Below are positions 951 to 15,144 of a DNA stretch of 64,000 nt, piece after piece. Under the pieces are notes generated by a model. It saw only the letters and a program-made list of their open reading frames with translations. It did not search any database and was not told where the DNA came from. Each line of letters opens with the position of its first letter. Within the stretch, counting starts at the first letter, position 1. Source of the DNA: an uncultured archaeon (lineage in GTDB: Archaea > Aenigmatarchaeota > Aenigmatarchaeia > PWEA01 > JAGHBM01); NCBI GenBank assembly GCA_964584335.1, contig CAZOZN010000001.1, forward strand, positions 293,351 through 357,350, given 5' to 3'. The translations under genes were made by a program, and so were the position numbers.

Positions 951-1627
951 TTTTCCACCAGAGAAGCTTTCTTGATTTTAATTAATCCAGAATACCTTTT
1001 ATATTCGCTTGAAAATTCATCTACTTTAATTTTTTTATTAAATAAAGGTGAATCGAGTACTGTTGTTTCTATTTCTCCGCCCTCACCGGAAGGGTTTATA
1101 AAATATTCTGAACTCATTTTTTCTAGCTCTAAAACGGTTCTTTTGTCTATAGTCCTGCCCAGCCATTCCGAGCCAAAGGGCTCTGCAAATACTCCTGTTA
1201 TAAGAACTTCAAATCCCGAATCCACCAATTCATTAAGTATATCAACCTGATTTTTTTGCCATAATGGATTAAAACACCAGATGTCAAGTTCGTTACATAT
1301 TTTTTGTATCCTTGTTGCCTGATACACAGATTCTATCGCTCCGGTAACTACCCCCTCTATTTCATACTCCTCTATTGCATTTTTTATTACTTTTTTTAAA
1401 TCCTCTAACTCCTTTTCCTTTTCACCCTTGGTTTTTATTTTAATTATTGGAATTTTCATTGCCTCAGACTGAAATTCGGTAATAGAAATATTTGGAGTAT
1501 GAAACATGAAGCTCTCCTTGTTTTCAGAAATAACCGTAATTAAACACGATACCTCTTCTTTTTGCATCGCTTTGTAAAGTGCCAAACAGGAATCTTTTCC
1601 TCCTGAAAATAAAACGCCCAGTTTCAT
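947..1627 (-). CDS. MJ0570/Dph6-family PP-loop ATPase (diphthine-ammonia ligase-like)
   Basis: N-terminal MKLGVLFSGGKDS PP-loop and C-terminal GEGGEIETTVLDSPLF signature of the Dph6/MJ0570 family. Confidence 0.8.
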   Translation of the reverse strand: MKLGVLFSGGKDSCLALYKAMQKEEVSCLITVISENKESFMFHTPNISITEFQSEAMKIPIIKIKTKGEKEKELEDLKKVIKNAIEEYEIEGVVTGAIESVYQATRIQKICNELDIWCFNPLWQKNQVDILNELVDSGFEVLITGVFAEPFGSEWLGRTIDKRTVLELEKMSSEYFINPSGEGGEIETTVLDSPLFNKKIKVDEFSSEYKRYSGLIKIKKASLVEK

Positions 1628-1668
1628 AAAAATTCATAACATTAGATATTATAAAAATATAATAAAGG

Positions 1669-2157
1669 TCAGTTTTCTATTATTTTGTAATCTATTAAGA
1701 GCTTTAGGCCTTTTTTTCTTTCTTTTGTTTCTTTTTCTTCAATACCTTCCGGTACATGCTCGGGTACTTTTTCAAATTTGCTGAATTTTTCTATTATACT
1801 GTTCAAGTCTCTTGAGGGGCGGCAGTTCCTTAGCTTAACTTTCTTGAATCTCCCCGCGTAATTTAATGTAACCCTCTCTTCAAGGCCGTTTGATATATGT
1901 TCATGATAAAAATCTCTGAGTTCTATGAATTCGGAATTTAATATCTTTTCTACAAAGGTATATATTTTTTCCGGCAGTATCTTGTACCTTTTGATTATTT
2001 TTCCGTTCTGATGCTTTCTCGTTTTTGTGTCAAGACCTATTCCAACCACTTCCACATTACCATCCTTAAAAATCCTTATCTTTCTCCCCGTCCATGGGGT
2101 TGTTGTTTTGAACATATACTCTATTAAGGGGTTGTGTTCTCTGTATCCTTTGTCCAT
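1669..2157 (-). CDS. hypothetical protein (162 aa)
   Basis: Clean ORF in a same-strand string between the radical SAM and Dph6-like genes. No motif recognised. Confidence 0.5.
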   Translation of the reverse strand: MDKGYREHNPLIEYMFKTTTPWTGRKIRIFKDGNVEVVGIGLDTKTRKHQNGKIIKRYKILPEKIYTFVEKILNSEFIELRDFYHEHISNGLEERVTLNYAGRFKKVKLRNCRPSRDLNSIIEKFSKFEKVPEHVPEGIEEKETKERKKGLKLLIDYKIIEN

Positions 2158-2223
2158 TCAATGCACCAATTATAATGAAGGACGAAAACTATTTAAGTAT
2201 TAACTACCTAAAAGAGACAACAT

Positions 2224-3258
2224 TTATGGCACTATTTCTATAGAATTGTTGTATTTGGGATAGATAAAATCATCCTTTTTTACTATATTTTTCTCTATAA
2301 GCTTGTTTATTTCATTTTTCCTGTCAAGCAAAGTATCTATAGTATGTTTGGTTATTTCACAAACCTTTTCAAAACCCTCTTCTCCCCAGTAACGTTCCTT
2401 GTAAGAATAAAGACACCTTCCGCCGCACCATTTTAAATAGGGACAGGATGTACATGGCTCATTTATACCGCACTTAGTTTCAAAATGATTGATATTACCC
2501 AGAACAGACCATTTTTCACGAACGGCGATAGGGCAAGATATAACTTTTCCGTTTGGCAGTATAGAGACCGAGTTTACTCCCGCCTCGCATGGAGGTTTCA
2601 TGTTACTCATTCCATGCTCTACTCGTAGTATGCCCTGAAATGGTGCAATACCAAGAACAAAACTTTCTTTCATTTCTTCTATCCACAAATCGGTGAGCTT
2701 TTCTATACCCTTCTTGTATCTTATTGACCATTCATCGAAATTATCCCATCTGTCGCTCCACATAACATCAAGCTGCCAATGAACATGGTCAAATTTATTT
2801 ACAAGGTGCTTGACGTCTCTGTATATATCACCTCTTTCTGAATGAGCCATTCTTGCTACTATGTCATTTACCTTTCCTTCAAGAAACTTTCTTGATTCCA
2901 TAACCTTTTTGTAGGTGCCGCCACCCCTGTAGTAATCAGTCACTTCTTCTGTACCGTCCACAGAAAGAAGTACAGTATCCATTTTTTTCCAGTATTTTTC
3001 ATCTAGATTCCGGGTAAGTGTTCCGTTAGTTTGTATAACGTAGGTAGCAGGTACAAAGTCTATTACATTTTTTATGAAATCTACGTTTAGAAGAGGCTCT
3101 CCACCATAAAAACATATAACATCCTCTGGTTTTATTATGTCTCTTAGCCTTTTTACATCGTAGGAAACTTCCCAAGGTACATATTCTCTTTCGAAGCTCC
3201 CGCCGCAATACCTGCAATTAAGGTTGCATCTTCCTGTTGTGTGCAGTATGAATAGCAT
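2224..3258 (-). CDS. radical SAM enzyme with C-terminal SPASM-type Cys cluster (putative peptide/protein-modifying)
   Basis: CNLNCRYC (CxxxCxxC) at the N-terminus. Cys-rich C-terminal region: CEAG..C..CTSCPYLKWCGGRC. Confidence 0.85.
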   Translation of the reverse strand: MLFILHTTGRCNLNCRYCGGSFEREYVPWEVSYDVKRLRDIIKPEDVICFYGGEPLLNVDFIKNVIDFVPATYVIQTNGTLTRNLDEKYWKKMDTVLLSVDGTEEVTDYYRGGGTYKKVMESRKFLEGKVNDIVARMAHSERGDIYRDVKHLVNKFDHVHWQLDVMWSDRWDNFDEWSIRYKKGIEKLTDLWIEEMKESFVLGIAPFQGILRVEHGMSNMKPPCEAGVNSVSILPNGKVISCPIAVREKWSVLGNINHFETKCGINEPCTSCPYLKWCGGRCLYSYKERYWGEEGFEKVCEITKHTIDTLLDRKNEINKLIEKNIVKKDDFIYPKYNNSIEIVP

Positions 3259-3369
3259 GCTAATTTTTCGAATTTTATGTTTATTAGCTTTTGTTCGTTC
3301 ATGTTCGCTACTGTTCAGTACAGGTTTTATATGTTGTTCATGTGCTGGGATAAAGCGAGGTGATAAAAA

Positions 3370-4023
3370 ATGAATACAAAATATATCCTCCCTGCAATGC
3401 TTTTGGGAGTATTGCTTTTTGGAGGAATAGCAACAGTTAATGCAACAGCCAACTTGGCTGAAATACCAACATTTAGTGAAACAAGAAGAATAATAGAAAC
3501 AGGCTCTTTGATTGAGAAAGAAGAGTTTAAAATAGAAGAAAATGAGATACCTTCGTCTTACGAGGAAACAAAGAAGCTCATGAGATACTCCATTGAGAAT
3601 GATGAATTGATTATAACTCCGGATTCATCTTCATCAGAAGAAGTGACAAAAATAGACGGATATAGAGGTACAAGGAGGTTCTTGATGTATACCCAGGACG
3701 GAAGAAATATACTATGGGGGACTTTAAGAAACGGTTACTTCCTTGCTCAGGACAATGAAGGTAACGATGCTTGGGGAGTATATCAAGGAGGAAAATTTGT
3801 CGGTTTTTACGAAGAGGAAGAAGATTCGGTCTTTTATTTCCATGGATATTACAGGAAAGGTTACTGGAAAGCTCAAAATCTTTTCGGTGAAGAATCTTCG
3901 TACGGGAAATATGTTATTTTCCCAAATTCAAATATCAGACATTGGAAAATAAGACCAAATCCTGTAAGACCGTTATATTACCCTGGTCCAATGGAGGAAA
4001 CAATAGAAAAAGAGGTAATATGA
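3370..4023 (+). CDS. secreted hypothetical protein
   Basis: AGGTGAT SD 5 nt upstream of the ATG. N-terminal hydrophobic signal-like segment ILPAMLLGVLLFGGIATVNA. Aromatic/Gly-rich C-terminal half. Confidence 0.6.
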   Translation: MNTKYILPAMLLGVLLFGGIATVNATANLAEIPTFSETRRIIETGSLIEKEEFKIEENEIPSSYEETKKLMRYSIENDELIITPDSSSSEEVTKIDGYRGTRRFLMYTQDGRNILWGTLRNGYFLAQDNEGNDAWGVYQGGKFVGFYEEEEDSVFYFHGYYRKGYWKAQNLFGEESSYGKYVIFPNSNIRHWKIRPNPVRPLYYPGPMEETIEKEVI

Positions 4024-4035
4024 AATCAATAAATG

Positions 4036-4052
4036 CCCCTGCATGGCAGGGG
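4036..4052 (+). terminator. GC-rich hairpin immediately after the 3370-4023 gene
   Basis: cccctgc-atg-gcagggg, a perfect 7-bp stem in an otherwise AT-rich context. The ATG of the 4043 ORF-track start sits in the loop. Confidence 0.3.
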
Positions 4053-4087
4053 TAACCATATATAAACAAAGGAGAAATATTAAAATT

Positions 4088-4930
4088 ATGAAATTGTGGT
4101 TTTTATTCCCCCTTGTATTATTTTTTTGTATTTTTTCATCTCAGGCCGAAGCTGATATTGAAAGCGTAGATTATCTTGCAATAATAGAAGATAATGGAAA
4201 TGTTATAGTTACTGTAAATATAGAAGGAGAAGGTGTTGTTAATTTGCCTATACAAAAAGATGCAGAAGAGATAAACGTGGAGGGAGGACTCTACATAATA
4301 GAAGAAGATGAAATTGAAGTTTCCATAGGGGAGACTGGAGAAGCTTTTGTACTGTACTCTACATCTATGCTTACAAAAAAGAACGGAAGAAACTGGGAAT
4401 TTGACATGAAATTGCCTCAGAAATATTCGGTCGGATGTGCAGTTGCAATGCCAAAAGATACCAATCTCGAGGAAACAATACCAAATGCCGTAATAGAGTC
4501 AGGAGAAATAATGAAGCTTCACTGGAACAATGAAACGGATGAGATATACGTAAAATATTATTTTGATAAAGAAATAATTGAAGAGGAAATAAAAGGGGCA
4601 AACATAGTAATTTATTTGGCAGTCATTTTTTGCGCTATTTTAGCTCTTTCAGGAGGCGTAATAATATTTTCAAAAAGAAGAGAAATAAAGAAACTTGACA
4701 AGAAAAAAAACATAATAAAAACTTTACCCCCAAATGAGACAAAGATAGTTGAACTTTTAATGGAAAATGATGGTGAAATGAAGAGAAGTATAGCAGAGAG
4801 AAAATTAGAGATAGCTAAGTCAAGTCTTGCTGTTTCACTGAAAAATCTTGAAAGAAAAAATATAATAAAGGTTGACAGAACTTCAGCAAGCCATTACCTT
4901 AGGTTTACGAGTTGGTTTAATGAGCTTTAA
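4088..4930 (+). CDS. membrane-anchored protein: extracytoplasmic domain, one TM, C-terminal winged-helix DNA-binding-like domain
   Basis: Start chosen at MKLWFLFPLVLFF (signal-like). TM segment IVIYLAVIFCAILALSGGVIIF. C-terminal LPPNETKIVELLMENDGEMKRSIAERKLEIAKSSLAVSLKNLERKNIIKV looks MarR/TrmB-like wHTH. Confidence 0.6.
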   Translation: MKLWFLFPLVLFFCIFSSQAEADIESVDYLAIIEDNGNVIVTVNIEGEGVVNLPIQKDAEEINVEGGLYIIEEDEIEVSIGETGEAFVLYSTSMLTKKNGRNWEFDMKLPQKYSVGCAVAMPKDTNLEETIPNAVIESGEIMKLHWNNETDEIYVKYYFDKEIIEEEIKGANIVIYLAVIFCAILALSGGVIIFSKRREIKKLDKKKNIIKTLPPNETKIVELLMENDGEMKRSIAERKLEIAKSSLAVSLKNLERKNIIKVDRTSASHYLRFTSWFNEL

Positions 4931-5558
4931 TAAAAAAATAACTTTTGCATTTGTTTTGTTAGCCATCTTTATATTTGCCTCTTCTAATGTATTGGCAGGT
5001 TGCGGGTGTTCAAATATTAGTCAGAGCATTAGACTACCTTCAAATACTTTAAGAGATTTTCAGGATATAGAAAAAAAGCCGGTATCTACAGATTCCGAGA
5101 AAAGGGAATTTTACAACAAAGTTTTTAACATAAAAAGTGACACGAAAGCAAAAATATCAACAGTTGATAGTATTATCAGAAGAGGAAAAGAGGACCCGGA
5201 AAACTTCTTTGCAATAATGACTATAACAAGAGACATGGTTGAAGAAGATTATAGAAGTGATGTTGCAGAAATTTTAATCGATATGAATAATACTTTTGTA
5301 AAGAAGTTTTATCTTAAGGCAATGGAAAGTGAAAAACAAAAATACGAGATTAAAGAACAGATAATCAATTATGTTAAGCTAGTTTCGTCTGAACAGGAAA
5401 CAGAAATAAGTTTAGGGCCGGAGACAGAAAAAAACCAGACAACCCCGGGAGAAAATAAAATAGAGATAAAAAGAGATATATCTGAAGAAAGTATAAAGTC
5501 CCTTTTTAATAATGAGATAAGCAGAAAAGAATTTATCAACATCATATTCAATAAATAA
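4920..5558 (+). CDS. hypothetical lipoprotein-like secreted protein
   Basis: Internal start MSFNKKITFAFVLLAIFIFASSNVLAGC (hydrophobic segment plus LAGC lipobox-like). 11-nt overlap with the upstream gene. Confidence 0.5.
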   Translation: MSFNKKITFAFVLLAIFIFASSNVLAGCGCSNISQSIRLPSNTLRDFQDIEKKPVSTDSEKREFYNKVFNIKSDTKAKISTVDSIIRRGKEDPENFFAIMTITRDMVEEDYRSDVAEILIDMNNTFVKKFYLKAMESEKQKYEIKEQIINYVKLVSSEQETEISLGPETEKNQTTPGENKIEIKRDISEESIKSLFNNEISRKEFINIIFNK

Positions 5559-5609: not shown

Positions 5610-5843
5610 TTGGTTAAGGTAAAGGTTTATAGTGTACCTACTTGTCCTTACTGTAAGAAGATAAAGGAGTTTCTTAATAATGAAGGTATTGAATTTGAAG
5701 ATATAGATGTTTCTGAGGAAGAAAATAAAAAAGAGATGCTAGATAAAACAGGACAATTGAGAGTGCCACAGACAGAAATTAACGGAAATATGATAATTGG
5801 TTATAAAATGGAAAAAATAAAAGAGGAGTTAAAAAATGTATGA
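5610..5843 (+). CDS. glutaredoxin-like small redox protein
   Basis: CPYC active site and thioredoxin-fold pattern ..RVPQTEINGNMIIGY. AAGGAGGTG SD upstream of a TTG start. Confidence 0.8.
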   Translation: MVKVKVYSVPTCPYCKKIKEFLNNEGIEFEDIDVSEEENKKEMLDKTGQLRVPQTEINGNMIIGYKMEKIKEELKNV

Positions 5844-6744
5844 TATAATAATTATTGGAGCAGGAATTTCGGGACAAACTGCAGCAATATATGCATCAAG
5901 AAAAAAAATGAACTATCTATTCATAACCAAAGAAATCGGCGGACAGTTCCTTGAGTCCGGGGAAGTTGTAAATTATCCCGGAATAATAAAAACTACCGGC
6001 GAGGAATTTGCATCTGTTATGGAAGAGCAGCTTGAATTTAATGATGTGAGTGTTAATGAAAACGAGGAGGTAAAGTCAATAGAGAAAAAGGAAAAGGGGT
6101 TTAAAGTTACTACAGACAAAAATTCCTACGAATCTTATACGGTTCTGATAGCAACAGGAGCCAGGCACAGGATGCTTAAGGTACCGGGAGAAGAAAGGCT
6201 AAAGAACAAAGGAGTTACCTACTGTGCTGTGTGTGACGGTCCCTTGTTTTCCGGAAAGAATATTGCAATCATAGGCGGTGGAGATTCTGCACTTGAAGCT
6301 GCTGATTTCACAAAAAGTATTGCAAATAAAATATACCTTATAAATAGAAACAAAGACTTTAGTGCGCACGAATATTTGGTTGAAAGAGTAAAATCAATGG
6401 ACAACTTGGAGATAATAGAAGAGTCAAATACAGTTGAAATTTTAGGAGAAGAAATGGTTAAAGGTCTTGTTTACGAGAAGAATGGTGAAAAAAAGGAACT
6501 GGATGTGAATGGTATTATAATAGAGATTGGAAGAGTTCCTAATACCAATTTTGTAAAAGGACTTGTAGAGCTCGACAAACATGGCCATATAATAATTGAC
6601 TGTCAGACAGGAACCTCAGTCGAGGGTATATTCGCGGCAGGTGATTGTGCTTCCGGTCACGAATACCAGTATTGTATAGCCGCGGGGCAGGGTTGTATGG
6701 CTCTTCTTAAGGCAGCAAGATATATAGCAAAAAGAAATCTTTAG
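5836..6744 (+). CDS. trxB: thioredoxin-reductase-family flavoprotein (low-Mr TrxR type)
   Basis: GAGISGQTAA FAD motif, CAVC redox dithiol, GGGDSALEAA second dinucleotide motif, GIFAAGDC. Overlaps the upstream gene by 8 nt. Confidence 0.85.
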   Translation: MYDIIIIGAGISGQTAAIYASRKKMNYLFITKEIGGQFLESGEVVNYPGIIKTTGEEFASVMEEQLEFNDVSVNENEEVKSIEKKEKGFKVTTDKNSYESYTVLIATGARHRMLKVPGEERLKNKGVTYCAVCDGPLFSGKNIAIIGGGDSALEAADFTKSIANKIYLINRNKDFSAHEYLVERVKSMDNLEIIEESNTVEILGEEMVKGLVYEKNGEKKELDVNGIIIEIGRVPNTNFVKGLVELDKHGHIIIDCQTGTSVEGIFAAGDCASGHEYQYCIAAGQGCMALLKAARYIAKRNL

Positions 6745-6756
6745 TTGGTGGATAAA

Positions 6757-6903
6757 ATGGTTCAAAAAAAGTTTTGGAGATGTAATGTTTGTGGTGATAT
6801 ACACTACGGTGTTTCAGGCCCGGAGATTTGTCCCACATGCAATTTCAAGAACTCTTACGTAGAGATAGATAAAAACGAGGCAAAGAGTGTGATGAATTTA
6901 TGA
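6757..6903 (+). CDS. rubredoxin-like zinc/iron-ribbon protein (48 aa, below the ORF-track cutoff)
   Basis: Own translation: MVQKKFWRCNVCGDIHYGVSGPEICPTCNFKNSYVEIDKNEAKSVMNL. CxxC..(15)..CxxC as in the rubredoxin-like domain of rubrerythrin. Stop overlaps the next start (ATGA). Confidence 0.55.
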   Translation: MVQKKFWRCNVCGDIHYGVSGPEICPTCNFKNSYVEIDKNEAKSVMNL

Positions 6904-7166
6904 AAAAAGAATATTTGATAAAAGTCTGGGAAAACTTTACAAAAAACAATGATTTTAAGCTAAATACTGACACAAATCATGTAGAAGATTTGGCCTCGGG
7001 TGTTTTAGAGAACGAAAAAAAATTCGGTCTAAAGCTCTGTCCATGCAGACTAAGAGACGGAACCAGGGAAAGAGACTTGGAGCTTCTCTGTCCATGCAAT
7101 TTCAAATCACAGGAAACATGGAAAGAGGAAGGAAGGTGCTGGTGCGGGCTTTTTGTAAAAGAATGA
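6900..7166 (+). CDS. ferredoxin:thioredoxin reductase catalytic-subunit-like protein (FTRc family)
   Basis: Three CxC motifs (LCPCR ... LCPCN ... CWCGLF) in an ~88-aa protein, the hallmark of the FTR catalytic chain. Confidence 0.75.
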   Translation: MKKEYLIKVWENFTKNNDFKLNTDTNHVEDLASGVLENEKKFGLKLCPCRLRDGTRERDLELLCPCNFKSQETWKEEGRCWCGLFVKE

Positions 7167-7167
7167 T

Positions 7168-8277
7168 TCACTTCTTATTTTTCTTAACTCTTCTTCTCTC
7201 TTCAATCACCATTATGGGAGGTACCACGCCCAGTGCGGCTACCAGGGAATAGAAAACTCCGAAAGTCAGTGCCACAGAGAAATCCTGTAAGAAAGTAAGA
7301 GTTGCTGTAAGAAGAGCAAGAAAACCTATTATTGTTGTGAATGATGTTAAGGTAAGCCCTTTTCCTACATGCACTACAGCATTAGTAATTGCTTCTTCCG
7401 CGGGGTATTTTTTCCTGTCCTCCTTGAACCTATGTATTATATGTATTGCAAAATCTATTCCAAGACCTATAATTATAGAAAAAACTCCGGTTAATGGTGG
7501 TGATAAAGGTATCCCAACATAACCAAGAGTGCCAAAGGTCCATATCGTGGAAAGTATTATAGGGACCACCGCTATTCCCACGAAAGTTATTCTCCTAAAG
7601 AATAGATATAATATTACAAAAACCGCTAAAAATCCTATGAATGTAACATAGCTAGTTCTTCCGCCCAGACTTCTTCCTATTTCCTCTCCAAGAAATGCAG
7701 AACCGGCAAAATCAACTTTCATCCCCAGCGGTCTTTCGGAAAAGTATACTGTGTTTCTTATATAATTATTTAGCTGGTCTCTTTCAAAATCTGGCATATC
7801 TGCCATCAAAGAGAAAGTCATTATTGCAACTCTCTTGTCTTTGGTGATGAAATCCCCGGATTGTGGATTTTCTTCAAGAAAATAATTTATTTCTTTCTGT
7901 GAAAGAGATATGTCAACTAAATCTGTAACGCTTCTCTTGTTTAGTACAAATTCGTTTTCTTCTATTTGATTTCCTATATTTTCCATTGATTCTAAAATCC
8001 TTTTATCCCTTATATCGCTAACACTCATGGGATCTTTTTCTTCAAGCCTGAATATGAGAATTACGCTTTCTCCGCCTCTCCCTATTTTGTCTCTTATTTT
8101 ATTAAGGGAAATAATAGTATCTATGTCCTCTGGAAGCTGGCTTTCTTCGCTTGTTTCGTTTTCTATGAGAGAAAACCCGGTCGATATTATAATTGTGAAT
8201 ATCAGGAAAGCTGCTATAAAAGTCTTAGGTCTTTTGTTTTCTAGTTTTGCAAGTTTATCAAGATATTTTTCAATCAT
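7168..8277 (-). CDS. RND/MMPL-superfamily exporter, C-terminal half
   Basis: One N-terminal TM, a soluble loop domain, then five TMs with GLGIDFAIHIIHRF. ATGA overlap with the upstream half. Confidence 0.7.
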   Translation of the reverse strand: MIEKYLDKLAKLENKRPKTFIAAFLIFTIIISTGFSLIENETSEESQLPEDIDTIISLNKIRDKIGRGGESVILIFRLEEKDPMSVSDIRDKRILESMENIGNQIEENEFVLNKRSVTDLVDISLSQKEINYFLEENPQSGDFITKDKRVAIMTFSLMADMPDFERDQLNNYIRNTVYFSERPLGMKVDFAGSAFLGEEIGRSLGGRTSYVTFIGFLAVFVILYLFFRRITFVGIAVVPIILSTIWTFGTLGYVGIPLSPPLTGVFSIIIGLGIDFAIHIIHRFKEDRKKYPAEEAITNAVVHVGKGLTLTSFTTIIGFLALLTATLTFLQDFSVALTFGVFYSLVAALGVVPPIMVIEERRRVKKNKK

Positions 8278-9467
8278 TTTAACTGCCTCTTTATTTCATC
8301 CTTTAGAAATACATGCAACCAATCCCTTATGGAAAGCAACGAGGGCAGGAAGAATATTGATAAAATCATTGCATAGAAAATTCCAAGGCTTAGCGCTATC
8401 CCCATGTCTGAAAGAAACGGAATTCCTGAAAGAGTGAGCGCCAGAAAAGAAGCTATTGTAGTTATCGCCGTCCCGACTATGGCTCTTCCTACCCTGTCTA
8501 CAGCAACACCGTAACATATGAAGCATGTCTTCATACATCCGTCATAATCCCCTTCTATGCAAATCTTTCTTGAATCGTCTCTCCTCCTGCTTCTCTCTTC
8601 GTTATAACGGTTTATTATATGTATGGCATAATCTATCCCAATGCCCACGATAAGAGAGCCTACAACAACCGTGACTATAGAAAGCGGAACTCCTATAATA
8701 ACCATTGTACCCGCAGTCCAGATAAATGCAAGGAAGAGTATTGATATAGAGAAAATTCCTCTTAGAATTGAACGGTAAGATATCATAAGAGTTAGAAATA
8801 TCAAAACTCCCGCTATTGCAAGAGTTTTATACAAATCATCAAATATCAAATCAGAAACTATTTTGCCTATTAAAGGGCCTCCTGTAACCGAGAGAGAAAC
8901 GCTCCCAGGAAAACCTATGCTTTCTACCTCATTTTCTATCTCTTCTACCACTTCTTCTATTTCCTCAAGCTCTATTTTTCCGTTTAGTCTCACTGTAACT
9001 ATAGTGGTGCTATAGTCACTGCTAAAAAGCCCGGAATCGCCGTTAAAAATATTTTTTATATCCTCCTGGTTTTCAGGTATCCCTCCGGTTCTTAATAGAA
9101 GTATGTCGGGAGGGCCAAAAACTTCATTCACGTTGGGGTCCTTTCTCAGAAGCTCTTCCATCAGATTTAAGTCTTTCATGACTTCAGAATTTCTTATATC
9201 TGTTATTTTACTTTCAAAAGATTTTTCCGTGTTAAGCTCTACCAGTATGAATATGTTATCTGTCTCTGAAAAAACCTCTGCCAAGAAATTCTGGTTTTCA
9301 AGTGCTGGAAGATCCTGGGGAAGTGACTTATAGAAGTCTGTCTCTACATCTATTTTTACAGCGTTAAGACCCATAAAAAGGGTTATTATTATTGCAACAG
9401 AAAGAATAGTCTCGGGGTGTTTTGCGGCAAATTCCCCATATTTCTGAAGGAGAGTTTTCTCGGGCAT
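8274..9467 (-). CDS. RND/MMPL-superfamily exporter, N-terminal half
   Basis: Same topology as the neighbouring gene, with GIGIDYAIHIINRY motif. It is a paralogous half. Confidence 0.7.
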   Translation of the reverse strand: MPEKTLLQKYGEFAAKHPETILSVAIIITLFMGLNAVKIDVETDFYKSLPQDLPALENQNFLAEVFSETDNIFILVELNTEKSFESKITDIRNSEVMKDLNLMEELLRKDPNVNEVFGPPDILLLRTGGIPENQEDIKNIFNGDSGLFSSDYSTTIVTVRLNGKIELEEIEEVVEEIENEVESIGFPGSVSLSVTGGPLIGKIVSDLIFDDLYKTLAIAGVLIFLTLMISYRSILRGIFSISILFLAFIWTAGTMVIIGVPLSIVTVVVGSLIVGIGIDYAIHIINRYNEERSRRRDDSRKICIEGDYDGCMKTCFICYGVAVDRVGRAIVGTAITTIASFLALTLSGIPFLSDMGIALSLGIFYAMILSIFFLPSLLSIRDWLHVFLKDEIKRQLK

Positions 9468-11751: not shown

Positions 11752-12111
11752 TCAAAATTCACATTCCTCACAATCCAAGCCGGGACAGTCAGAATGTCCT
11801 ATTTTCCACTCTAATCCCCATCTCTTAACTTCTTTTATCACATTAAAAAAGTCTTCACCCTTCTCAGTTAATGTGTACTCTGATTTTACGGGAAACTTTT
11901 TAGCCTCTATCTTATTTTTTATTATGCCTTCTTTCTCAAGGCTTTTTAATCTAGCAGAAAGCATTTTAGGAGTTATATCAGGTATCTTCTTTTTTAACTC
12001 GGAATATCTTTTCCATTTGCTTTTCCCCTTGTATATCTCTGCTATTATTAAAACGGTCCATCTTTTCCCCATGTATTTCATTACCTCGTAAATAGGACAA
12101 TCTCTTTTCAT
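11752..12111 (-). CDS. HxlR-family winged-helix transcriptional regulator with Cys-rich C-terminal tail
   Basis: CPIYEVMKYMGKRWTVLII...RYSELKK...ITPKMLSARLKSLEKEGII...EYTLTEKG. Extra tail HSDCPGLDCEECEF. Divergent from the peroxiredoxin operon. Confidence 0.8.
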   Translation of the reverse strand: MKRDCPIYEVMKYMGKRWTVLIIAEIYKGKSKWKRYSELKKKIPDITPKMLSARLKSLEKEGIIKNKIEAKKFPVKSEYTLTEKGEDFFNVIKEVKRWGLEWKIGHSDCPGLDCEECEF

Positions 12112-12187: not shown

Positions 12188-12256
12188 ATGTTTTTTTCAG
12201 GTAAAAACTTTTATAAGCAAGATAAACTTATAATAGGATTACGGGGGGTGTTTTAA
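12188..12256 (+). CDS. 22-codon upstream ORF (possible leader peptide) ending in TAATG overlap with the peroxiredoxin start
   Basis: Own translation: [33 protein letters not shown] 5 nt upstream, the same consensus as bona fide genes here. Its stop shares one base with the prx ATG. Confidence 0.3.
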
Positions 12257-12921
12257 TGGAAGAAGAAAAAAATTCTATGCCTTTAATAGGTGACGATTTT
12301 CCCAAGATTACTGTTCATACCACTCACGGGAGAATAAATTTACCCGATGATTACAAAGGCAAGTGGTTCGTTTTGTTCAGTCATCCTGGTGATTTTACGC
12401 CTGTATGCACTACTGAATTCGTGGCTTTTCAGAAAAGATTTGACAAGTTCAAAAAGCTAAACACAGAACTGATAGGTCTTAGCATAGACCAGGTTCACAG
12501 CCACATGAAATGGACCGAATGGATAGAAGAAAAGATGGATGTAAAAATAAAGTTTCCCATAATAGCAGATGCTATGGGTAACTTAGCAAAAAAACTTGGC
12601 ATGATAAGCCCATTTAAGGGTTCTAATACTGTCAGGGCAGTTTTTGTAGTAGACTCTAACGGCAAGTTTCGTGCCATATTGTATTATCCCCAGGAACTGG
12701 GAAGAAACATGGATGAAGTGCTAAGGATAGTACAGGCAATGCAAATTTCAGACGAAAATAAAGTTGCAATGCCGGCAAACTGGCCCAAAAATGAAATATT
12801 GGGCGACGAGGTAATAGTACCGCCTGCTTCTGATGAGGAAACCGCTAAAAAGAGGATGGAAGAAGACAAGAAAGGAAGTATAAAATGTTTTGATTGGTGG
12901 TTGTGCCACAAAAAACTTTAA
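12256..12921 (+). CDS. peroxiredoxin (archaeal Prx6-like thiol peroxidase)
   Basis: [11 protein letters not shown] peroxidatic Cys motif. C-terminal CFDWWLCHK Cys pair typical of archaeal Prx. Confidence 0.9.
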
Positions 12922-12939
12922 AATTAAGGGGTGAAAAAA

Positions 12940-13227
12940 ATGCTTTCAAAGATACCTATAGACTTGAAAAACATAAAAAAAGAGGACTTAGACAAGGAAA
13001 TACTAAGAGCCGGTATAATAGCAGAATATGATGCTATAAACCTCTACGAGCAGATGGCAGCTCTTGCACAGGACGAAAACATAAAAAAAGTTATGTTGGA
13101 TGTCGCCAAGGAAGAAAAGGAGCATGTAGGTGAATTTCAGACACTTCTCCTAAAAAGAGATAAAGAGCTTGGAGAAGAAATGGAAGAAGGAAAAGAAGAG
13201 GTAGAAGAATTAACAGGAGGTGAATAA
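12940..13227 (+). CDS. small ferritin-like (EncFtn/rubrerythrin-related) protein
   Basis: ~95 aa two-helix protein with [13 protein letters not shown] ... EEKEHVGEF (ExxH metal-ligand pattern). Start moved to the ATG behind AAGGGGTGA. Confidence 0.6.
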
Positions 13228-13813
13228 TCTGGAGGAAACAATAAAAAATCTGACAAAAGCCTTTATAGGCGAAAGCCAGGCCAGAAACAGATACACAATA
13301 TATTCAAAAATAGCGAAAAAAGAAGGATTTGAACAGATATCTGCAGTTTTTAACGAGACCGCGGAACAGGAAAGAGAGCATGCCAAATGGCTTTTTAGGA
13401 TGATAAATGACTTAAAGAAAAAGAGCGATAAGGAATGGAATCCTGTGGAAGTTACTGCAGACTCTCCCAACACGTTTGGCTGCACATCAGAAAATCTTAA
13501 AGCAGCCATAGACGGCGAGAACTATGAGCACACTGAAATGTATCCCGAGTTTGCAGACACAGCTGAAAAAGAAGGTTTTCCAGAAATAGCTAAAAGACTT
13601 CGCTCAATAGCCAAAGCTGAAAGCCATCACGAGCAGAGATATGCAAAGCTTTTAAAGGAAGTAGAAAACGATACTGTTTTCAAGAAAGAGAAAAAAATCT
13701 ATTGGGTATGTAGAAAATGTGGATATATACACGAAGGAGAGGAACCGCCTGAAACTTGTCCTTCTTGCAGTCACCCAAAAGCATATTTCCAAAGACAGTG
13801 TGAAGAATACTAA
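13220..13813 (+). CDS. rbr: rubrerythrin
   Basis: [39 protein letters not shown] diiron helices plus C-terminal WVCRKCG..(11)..CPSC rubredoxin-like domain. No ATG at the 5' end, so a GTG or CTG start and the exact start is uncertain. Confidence 0.9.
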
Positions 13814-13825
13814 CTGGGGGATAAA

Positions 13826-14383
13826 TTGAAAGACAGCAAACAAAAAATGCAGGTCGTTCTTGCGACCTCTTTTCTTTTTTTTATTATATTTATAATAATG
13901 ATATTAGGAGGTTTTTTAGACATGAAGGGAATAGTTACAATGGAAACCAATATGGGAACAATGAAGTTCCAATTGGAAATGGAGAAGGCACCGGTCACTA
14001 GCCAGAACTTCATAAAACTTGCAGAAGACGGTTTTTACGACGGACTAAAGTTCCACAGAGTTATAGAGGGTTTTATGATACAGGGAGGTTGTCCAAATGG
14101 TGATGGTACAGGAGGGCCTGGTTATTATATTGAGGACGAATTTCATGAAGAACTAAAACATGACAGTATAGGTATTTTGTCTATGGCCAACAGCGGACCC
14201 GACACCGGAGGCAGCCAGTTTTTCATAACTCTGGATAAGACACCGTGGCTTAACGGAAAACACGCAATATTTGGTCATATTATTGAAGGCAAAGATGTTT
14301 TAAAGAAAATAGGCTCAGTTGAAACTGACTCAACGGACAGACCCATGGAAGATGTTATAATAAAAAAAGTTACTGTTGTGTAA
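13826..14383 (+). CDS. cyclophilin-type peptidyl-prolyl isomerase with N-terminal membrane anchor
   Basis: [43 protein letters not shown]-terminal [19 protein letters not shown] hydrophobic segment. Start (TTG 13826 or ATG 13847) is uncertain. Confidence 0.9.
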
Positions 14384-14414
14384 CTGGTCAATATATTTTA
14401 TGGAGGTGGAAAAA

Positions 14415-14792
14415 ATGACTGAATTAAGGCAAGTTTACAGATGCAACATATGCGGCAACATAGTGGAAGTGCTTCATGAGGGCATCGGAGAGCTAGTTTG
14501 CTGTGGCAAACCTATGGAATTGTTAAAACCAAAGAAAGAGGACCAAGGAAGTGAAAAGCATGTTCCTGTAATAGATAAATCAGAAGATGCAGTAAGGGTA
14601 AAGGTAGGTGAAGTTCCTCACCCAATGGAAGAAAATCATTTCATAGAATGGATAGAAATTATAGCCGATGGAAAGGTTTATAGAGAGAGATTAGAACCTG
14701 GAGAAGAGCCTGATGCTGTGTTTTACCTAAAGGCCGAAAACGTCAGAGCCAGAATTTATTGTAACGTGCATGGTTTTTGGGAATCCAAGTAA
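14415..14792 (+). CDS. dfx: desulfoferrodoxin (2Fe superoxide reductase)
   Basis: N-terminal desulforedoxin-like [20 protein letters not shown] and C-terminal SOR domain (EKHVPV...[12 protein letters not shown]...CNVHGFW). GGAGGTGG SD before the ATG at 14415. Confidence 0.85.
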
Positions 14793-14838
14793 GACAGAAA
14801 AGATTTATAGAATTAATTACATATTTATTCAGGTATGC

Positions 14839-15144
14839 ATGGTTCTGTTAGAAGTTATGCTAAATTTTTTTAGAAAGCGTTTTACAACGAAGTACCCAAA
14901 ATCAGAACCCAAACTTCCAAAGAATTTCAGAGGACCTGTAAAGTGGAATAAAAAAACTTGTATATTTTGTGGTGCATGCGCGAGAAATTGTCCAGCCTAT
15001 GCTATAAAAATAGATAAAGAAAAAAAGGAATTGGTTGTGGACCCTTACAAATGCATATCCTGCGGTATCTGTCAGGAAAAATGTCCGACCAAACCAAAGT
15101 CTATCTACCTGACGGAAAAACTTCACGTAAGCAAATCTGAGTGA
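14839..15144 (+). CDS. 2x[4Fe-4S] ferredoxin-domain protein
   Basis: Two CxxCxxCxxxCP motifs (CIFCGACARNCP, CISCGICQEKCP). The N-terminal TKYP..FRG segment resembles NuoI/HycF-type subunits. Confidence 0.75.
   Translation: MVLLEVMLNFFRKRFTTKYPKSEPKLPKNFRGPVKWNKKTCIFCGACARNCPAYAIKIDKEKKELVVDPYKCISCGICQEKCPTKPKSIYLTEKLHVSKSE

Follow-up and report, generated by a model that had tools for sequence, protein, structure and literature searches.

The window, by which we mean the whole stretch of 64,000 nucleotides analysed, contains four tightly packed genes on the + strand. On ORF reading, these encode a glutaredoxin (Grx)-like protein, a thioredoxin reductase (TrxR)-like protein, a rubredoxin (Rd)-like protein and a protein resembling the catalytic subunit of ferredoxin:thioredoxin reductase (FTRc):

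5610..5843, + strand: Grx-like redoxin, 77 aa, CPYC, YruB/NrdH-like; first gene of the operon
5836..6744, + strand: TrxR-like flavoprotein of the low-molecular-weight kind, 302 aa, CAVC
6757..6903, + strand: rubrerythrin-type Rd-like protein, 48 aa, CNVC-x12-CPTC
6900..7166, + strand: FTR catalytic-subunit-like protein, 88 aa, CPC-x14-CPC-x13-CWC

Together these genes make up one operon of 1557 bp (~1.56 kb), which ends at position 7166, as the gene after FTRc is convergent. The Grx-like gene has a TTG start with a strong Shine-Dalgarno (SD) sequence, AAGGAGGTG, 8 nt upstream, and overlaps the TrxR-like gene by 8 nt. The Rd ORF begins with the ATG at 6757, which lies 12 nt past the TrxR stop and is preceded at 5 nt by an SD-like GGTGGA. 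An in-frame alternative start (TTG 6745) is less likely because homologues begin at the M-x-KKFWRC position. The FTRc ATG at 6900 overlaps the Rd TGA at 6901-6903 (ATGA, a 4-nt overlap). A first-pass annotation, made from the letters of this DNA, had described a 48-codon CNVC...CPTC ORF ending in an ATGA overlap, an 88-aa protein with CPC...CPC...CWC, and a location next to TrxR in a block of ~1.6 kb; the gene coordinates and the x14 and x13 spacings bear out all three.

Protein families of the operon

The same annotation had proposed an HMM search of both small ORFs, and this was positive, each scoring above its Pfam cut-off. The 88-aa protein matched PF02943 (FeThRed_B) at 63.8 bits (cut-off 22 bits; E 1.7e-17, profile positions 5-87 of 106), and the 48-aa ORF matched PF21349 (RUBY_RBDX) at 37.4 bits (cut-off 26.5 bits; E 1.7e-9, profile positions 1-28 of 30). 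NCBIfam agreed in kind for both ORFs, with no equivalog-level match.

In the 88-aa protein, the six Cys of the three CxC motifs and the Trp were all invariant among 14 homologues (alignment A1). A database search returned 472 clusters at 90% identity, with 66-77% identity among the clusters listed. The closest PDB matches were 4tpu (E 8e-15) and then 7pwe (E 2.8e-14), and plant and cyanobacterial FTRc were far weaker (E 0.03-0.06). The third motif carries Trp here, Tyr in ferredoxin:disulfide reductase (FDR) and His in FTR. Since the residue beside the active Cys is thus neither the His of FTR nor the Tyr of FDR, catalytic details may differ. In public annotation the catalytic gene is called 'ferredoxin:thioredoxin reductase'.

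The 48-aa ORF gave its PDB match to the C-terminal Rd domain of rubrerythrin (E 2.4e-8), and its CxxC-x12-CxxC spacing is that of rubrerythrin in the PDB alignments. Classical rubredoxin (PF00301) was absent among its profile matches, which also included weak matches to zinc-ribbon families. An R-C-x2-C ... C-P-T-C core, with all four Rd Cys, was invariant (alignment A2). A profile built from 25 homologues found 480 database clusters at 90% identity, with lengths of 25-93 aa. The public homologues are called genes, named 'hypothetical', 'rubredoxin-like domain-containing protein' or 'rubrerythrin'. Across 71 copies, mean pairwise differences at the three codon positions were 0.19/0.18/0.60, a pattern that marks the ORF as a protein under purifying selection. 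The 48-aa ORF is a real gene, and its conservation goes well beyond chance.

The Grx-like protein matched PF00462 at 63.6 bits and TIGR02196 (GlrX_YruB) at 78 bits, the latter below the 88.55-bit cut-off, and Grx homologues near other Rd-FTRc pairs were 43-64% identical to it. The TrxR-like protein matched PF07992 at 142.8 bits and TIGR01292 at 297.6 bits, the latter again below cut-off; its best PDB matches were 3f8p and AhpF. It lacks the HRRxxxR NADPH motif, with INRNKDFSA there instead. TrxRs adjoining Rd-FTRc elsewhere also lack HRRxxxR, and all keep CxxC. The TrxR-like flavoprotein is probably NADH-driven.

Conservation, fusion and neighbourhood of the Rd-FTRc pair

FTRc homologues in 61 genomes of the same class were of two types, a CHC type that stands alone and a CWC type that is paired. 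The CWC type occurred in the genome of the window and in three others (G035, G036 and G053). A 50-53-aa Rd-like ORF lay immediately upstream in 4/4, and a Grx-like gene preceded that ORF in all four loci. In the GTDB set, CWC-type relatives were found in 193 species-representative genomes, and 80 loci of these were examined. Pairing was scored in 82 loci with an intact FTRc ORF and neighbours were counted in 84 loci. The loci were retrieved with CWC-type peptide patterns, so the frequency of CWC among them (81/82) is circular.

Loci with Rd and CWC-type FTRc were present in Woese-, Aenigm-, Nano- and Altiarchaeota (DPANN), in uncultured Methanosarcinales MAGs, in Patescibacteria, Dehalococcoidales and Aminicenantes, and in one gammaproteobacterial MAG. 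The Rd-like module lay directly upstream of FTRc, or was fused to it, in ~74/82 loci. The modal distance from Rd stop to FTRc start was -4 (ATGA), seen in 49/70 loci, and nine loci had +1. The small Rd was missing in a few loci (L020, L073 and L089) and is therefore not strictly required everywhere. In three more (L045, L079 and L084), a rubrerythrin or reverse rubrerythrin, each with a rubredoxin-type domain, replaces the small ORF directly upstream. The co-occurrence of small ORF and FTRc in relatives, which the first-pass annotation had left to be checked, was thus found in all four CWC carriers of the class and in most of the 82 loci, over several phyla. The Rd-FTRc gene pair is real, and it is conserved over a wide range of lineages.

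The two modules also occur naturally in one chain. Single-chain Rd-linker-FTRc proteins of 140-146 aa were found in five loci, and a search of 50%-identity representatives with a natural fusion gave ~10 further fusion clusters and one Rd-Rd-FTRc protein. A further candidate, P0070 (129 aa), was rejected as an Rd-FTRc fusion: it comes from a contig of 733 bp, where its reading frame runs through the upstream Rd gene in the wrong frame. Among the representatives, fusions with N-terminal Rd carry CWC and those with C-terminal Rd (the FDR type) carry CYC or CFC; the sister CYC/CFC lineage of FTRc has Rd at the C-terminus in 14 representatives. Both domain orders have therefore arisen, in two lineages. 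In an FTRc-domain tree, which was unrooted, built on a short alignment (89 columns) and left many forks unresolved, the split CWC proteins and the N-terminal fusions formed one supported group (97/89), with the FDR-type rows opposite. Fusions were interspersed among split forms within the tree, which implies fusion or fission several times. The fused forms lie behind transketolase/transaldolase genes. An AF2 model of a natural Rd-FTRc fusion, folded from alignment A5, was compact and confident (pLDDT 94.5, pTM 0.86).

Genes within 3 kb of the pair (84 loci) included superoxide reductase (SOR) in 32, rubrerythrin in 27, Grx-like genes in 24, TrxR in 16, small ferritin-like genes in 8, peroxiredoxin in 5 and SOD in 4. 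A Grx-like gene beside the pair was often without TrxR, and many Rd-FTRc loci had no SOR, rubrerythrin, Grx or TrxR nearby. In the window, an antioxidant gene island lies 5-8 kb downstream of the pair:

11752..12111, - strand: HxlR-type winged-helix regulator (PF01638, 88.6 bits), at the head of the island
12256..12921, + strand: peroxiredoxin (PF00578, 106.6 bits; PF10417)
12931..13227, + strand: small ferritin-like/EncFtn-like protein, 98 aa (PF02915, 33.7 bits; PF22277, 32.5 bits)
13220..13813, + strand: rubrerythrin (PF02915, 133.9 bits; PF21349, 54.7 bits)
14376..14792, + strand: desulfoferrodoxin-type superoxide reductase (PF01880, 78.4 bits; PF06397, 71.5 bits)
14770..15144, + strand: 2x[4Fe-4S] ferredoxin-like protein (PF00037, PF12838), overlapping the SOR gene

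A genome-wide search (92% complete) gave no match to classical rubredoxin (PF00301). The genome has two POR_N-type 2-oxoacid:ferredoxin oxidoreductase homologues.

The window TrxR was 53-61% identical to the TrxRs adjoining Rd-FTRc in 11 other scattered loci, whereas its identity to the best TrxR of congeners was only 35-39%. The FTRc/Rd-FTRc module was absent from the congeners. As the window TrxR is closer to the pair-linked TrxRs than to those of congeners, and the congeners are without FTRc, the Grx-TrxR-Rd-FTRc set behaves as a cassette passed from lineage to lineage. That an NADH-type TrxR and a Grx-like protein recur beside the pair likewise suggests a portable redox cassette, which would couple catabolic ferredoxin and NADH to oxidative-stress defence.

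Comparison with known disulfide reductases

To our knowledge, no disulfide reductases outside the FTR family employ an iron-sulfur cluster to pass electrons from a one-electron carrier to a two-electron dithiol, and the members that we know to have been studied so far are the FTR of plants and cyanobacteria and the FDR of Methanosarcina. The first-pass annotation had suggested that the locus encodes the two modules of the Methanosarcina enzyme as separate, coupled polypeptides. This is supported by matches of both ORFs to Methanosarcina acetivorans FDR (PDB 4tpu): the window FTRc matched residues 17-89, with the E value given above, and the 48-aa ORF matched residues 136-165 (E 0.006). Both systems have an FTRc-like CPC/CPC/CxC domain in which an aromatic residue replaces the FTR His, both have a short rubrerythrin-type Rd module, and neither has a variable subunit.

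The differences from 4tpu lie in architecture and sequence. Its modules are in one chain, whereas here they are two translationally coupled polypeptides with Rd encoded first, whose association we infer from the natural fusions. Rd is C-terminal in 4tpu but N-terminal in the natural fusions of the CWC group, and a natural CWC fusion accordingly matched 4tpu in both parts in swapped order. The aromatic residue of the third motif is Tyr in 4tpu and Trp in the window, and identity in the catalytic domain is ~30-40%. We considered whether the pair is a plain fission product of the Methanosarcina FDR and rejected this, given the separate CWC group in the tree and the opposite domain order.

The plant and cyanobacterial FTR (FTRc + FTRv; PDB 1dj7 and 2pvo) shares the fold of the catalytic chain and the six-Cys signature. 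It has CHC and an FTRv partner, whereas the window protein has CWC, spacings of 14 and 13, and a Cys4 Rd-like partner. The FTR variable chain (PF02941) had no match in the 962-kb genome (92% complete), in a search for which a Synechococcus control was positive. From the tree separation, the swapped domain order and the lack of an FTR variable chain, the locus is neither a canonical FTR nor an orthologue of the Methanosarcina FDR, and represents a sister, two-subunit FDR variant. Rd with CWC-type FTRc is a distinct, compact two-gene subfamily. Among the papers covered by a full-text literature search, none described a split Rd + FTRc system or reported biochemistry of this subfamily, though an earlier description may exist outside them.

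A Foldseek search returned 7pwe, the glutaredoxin/FDR fusion of Desulfotalea psychrophila, as best match (E 2.6e-7), with plant/cyanobacterial FTR at E ~1e-3. The FTRc-like domain of 7pwe is joined to Grx, which parallels the Grx-like gene of the operon, and 7pwe is an independent natural link of an FTRc-type domain to a glutaredoxin-type substrate. In 7pwe, however, Grx is fused and the third motif is CYC, whereas in the window Grx is a separate gene and the motif is CWC. No Rd module was detected in 7pwe, and the 48-aa ORF had no match to it at E <= 1. Likewise, the window Grx had no match to the 7pwe chain at E <= 0.001.

The Cp34/Cp9/Cp20-type system of Clostridium pasteurianum, made up of an NADH-dependent TrxR-like protein, a glutaredoxin homologue and a peroxiredoxin, resembles the other half of the operon. 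There too a Grx-like protein (YruB-type) goes with a TrxR that lacks the NADPH Arg motif, and in the window a peroxiredoxin is likewise nearby. We know of no FTRc-like or rubredoxin-like component in the C. pasteurianum system, which by analogy would account for the Grx-like and TrxR-like genes alone.

Proposed electron flow and alternatives

We consider it reasonably probable that the Rd and FTRc genes encode a two-subunit, FDR-like iron-sulfur disulfide reductase. The family cut-offs passed, the invariant Cys, the conserved pairing, the fusions, the precedents of 4tpu and 7pwe and the presence of candidate donors all argue for this reading, as do the same TrxR subtype with the pair in 11 scattered loci and a Grx beside the pair in 24/84. 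In the inferred scheme, which extends to the metals, the contact between the subunits, the donor and acceptor and the way in which electrons run, four of the six Cys of the 88-aa subunit would hold a [4Fe-4S] cluster and the other two would form an adjacent redox-active disulfide, by homology with FTR and FDR. A low-potential donor would reduce the Fe(Cys)4 centre of Rd. This is likely to be ferredoxin reduced by the 2-oxoacid:ferredoxin oxidoreductases of the genome, and the 2x[4Fe-4S] ferredoxin of the island (14770..15144) is a candidate. The 48-aa Rd would bind the FTRc subunit and pass single electrons to its cluster. The [4Fe-4S]/disulfide site would then reduce the CPYC Grx-like redoxin, its likely disulfide substrate, and the reduced redoxin could supply enzymes that depend on thiols, for example the peroxiredoxin of the island. 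The same redoxin would also be reached by a second route, from pyridine nucleotide through the TrxR-like flavoprotein. The idea of two parallel disulfide-reducing systems in one block, put forward in the first-pass annotation, is compatible with this gene context.

The energetics of the Rd step speak against this direction of flow. The potential of a typical rubredoxin-type centre is much higher than that of a dithiol/disulfide couple. Electrons would thus move uphill from Rd to a disulfide, which would demand tight coupling or an Rd of unusually low potential, and the passage from a dithiol to Rd is downhill. Electrons might instead run in reverse, from NADH through TrxR and the Grx-like dithiol to the FTRc-like protein and then Rd, making the pair a thiol-driven rubredoxin reductase that feeds rubrerythrin and SOR. 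Such an enzyme would convert two-electron dithiol into one-electron currency and replace NAD(P)H:rubredoxin oxidoreductase in minimal genomes. That all four genes share one operon, overlapping or near-abutting, suits this idea, as does a genome without PF00301 that nevertheless has rubrerythrin and SOR ~6-7 kb downstream. The frequencies of SOR and rubrerythrin within 3 kb of the pair (32/84 and 27/84) point the same way. SOR was also present in 14/17 CWC-module genomes of the class compared with 95/354 others, an enrichment that is overstated because related genomes are not independent. However, 86/109 SOR-bearing genomes of the class, four congeners included, had neither a classical Rd nor the module, so SOR is independent of the module and there is no complementarity. 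The many Rd-FTRc loci that have none of these four neighbours (SOR, rubrerythrin, Grx, TrxR) also count against reverse flow, and we know of no FTR-family enzyme that runs from dithiol to Rd physiologically. On balance we regard reverse flow as unlikely.

Two further readings concern the role of the small protein. It might transfer no electrons at all and have a structural or zinc-ribbon role, by which the FTRc cluster would be stabilised or shielded, as it is by the variable chain in plant FTR. The genome has no such chain, so the small partner could take its place; Zn binding is common in four-Cys knuckles of this size, the ORF gave those weak zinc-ribbon matches, and the ATGA overlap and the fusions would suit a structural partner equally well. 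Its best matches are nevertheless to the iron-binding Rd domain of rubrerythrin, with identical CxxC-x12-CxxC spacing, and at L045, L079 and L084 it is proteins with a rubredoxin-type domain that stand in for it. The homologous domain of FDR, moreover, is reportedly an iron centre. We therefore hold a purely structural role to be improbable as well. In the other reading, the TrxR-like protein is an NADH:rubredoxin oxidoreductase, and electrons pass from NADH through it to Rd, FTRc and the disulfide with no ferredoxin involved. Trios of TrxR, Rd and FTRc without Grx in the examined flanks (L074, L076, L081-L083 and L085) favour this, as do the co-inheritance of the TrxR subtype with the pair and its lack of the NADPH motif. 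Yet the redox-active CxxC dithiol that marks true disulfide reductases is retained in every one of these TrxRs, which would make a detour through Rd and FTRc redundant, and 68/84 loci have no TrxR nearby. We give this reading very little weight.

If the FDR-like proposal is true, many ultra-small anaerobes would rely mainly on Rd-FTRc for thiol reduction linked to ferredoxin. Because the Rd centre is here a separable subunit, the pair would also offer a clean natural system for the role of the Rd centre in FDR. In M. barkeri, FDR is said to work with an NrdH-like redoxin. On that precedent, a link to class III ribonucleotide reductase (RNR) was considered, but it is no more than a lead, since nothing ties the NrdD operon to the Rd-FTRc locus. 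The RNRs of the genome are only of the NrdD type (class III), and one of them has its own CPHC redoxin gene.

Origin and surroundings of the redox operon

FTRc, the homologue of the FTR catalytic subunit, was absent from the five congener genomes (G001–G005). The best TrxR of these genomes (loci L101–L105) shared only 35–39% identity with the TrxR of the window (5836–6744), which was 53–61% identical to TrxRs encoded beside Rd-FTRc pairs in distant lineages. The entire redox operon looks to have been acquired horizontally.

Other genes in the window included:

7168–8277, − strand, MMPL/RND-type membrane protein, 369 aa
8274–9467, − strand, MMPL/RND-type membrane protein, 397 aa
2224–3258, − strand, radical SAM protein, 344 aa, with a SPASM-like C-terminal Cys-rich domain

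The two membrane protein genes overlap by 4 nt and, because each spans roughly half of an MMPL transporter, the 7168–9467 region is, judged by its sequence, a transporter split over two genes, convergent with the redox operon. The radical SAM gene adjoins several small ORFs (3370–5558) for secreted or membrane proteins of unassigned function.

A possible client in ribonucleotide reduction

One operon elsewhere in the source genome (L092, contig C2:135731–140470) encodes three proteins:

1492–3834, − strand, class III RNR NrdD, 780 aa
1123–1488, − strand, thioredoxin-fold protein with a CPHC motif, 121 aa (PF13192)
392–1126, − strand, NrdG activase

No class I or II RNR was found in this genome and, together with the composition of the operon, this suggests that the anaerobic RNR encoded by L092 depends on a redoxin. 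That redoxin would in turn have to be reduced, with the window's TrxR or Rd-FTRc pair as candidates for this step. A second NrdD copy (L091, contig C3:92995–97626) was apparently split into ORFs 1138–3168 and 3122–3316. The latter ORF, of 64 aa, overlaps the former in a different frame and carries the final ~32 profile positions, including the glycyl-radical region. A frameshift, a misassembly or a genuine split could each account for this arrangement.

Variation in the rubredoxin-type partner

The small Rd was absent at three of the fetched loci, where a gene for a larger protein overlapped the FTRc start with its end:

L045, 2423–3001, full rubrerythrin with a C-terminal Rd
L079, 2432–2983, 'reverse' rubrerythrin with an N-terminal Rd
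L084, 2456–2977, 'reverse' rubrerythrin with an N-terminal Rd

At these loci, the larger protein appears to provide the rubredoxin-type partner of FTRc. Single-chain Rd-FTRc fusions at five loci (L038, L046, L055, L063 and L077) were directly preceded by transketolase and/or transaldolase genes, not by antioxidant genes. Rd repeats also occurred among the 50%-identity representatives, as a tandem Rd-Rd-FTRc fusion of 191 aa (P0242) and as small proteins of ~95 aa with two Rd-like repeats (P0255, P0259, P0270, P0271, P0306 and P0373).
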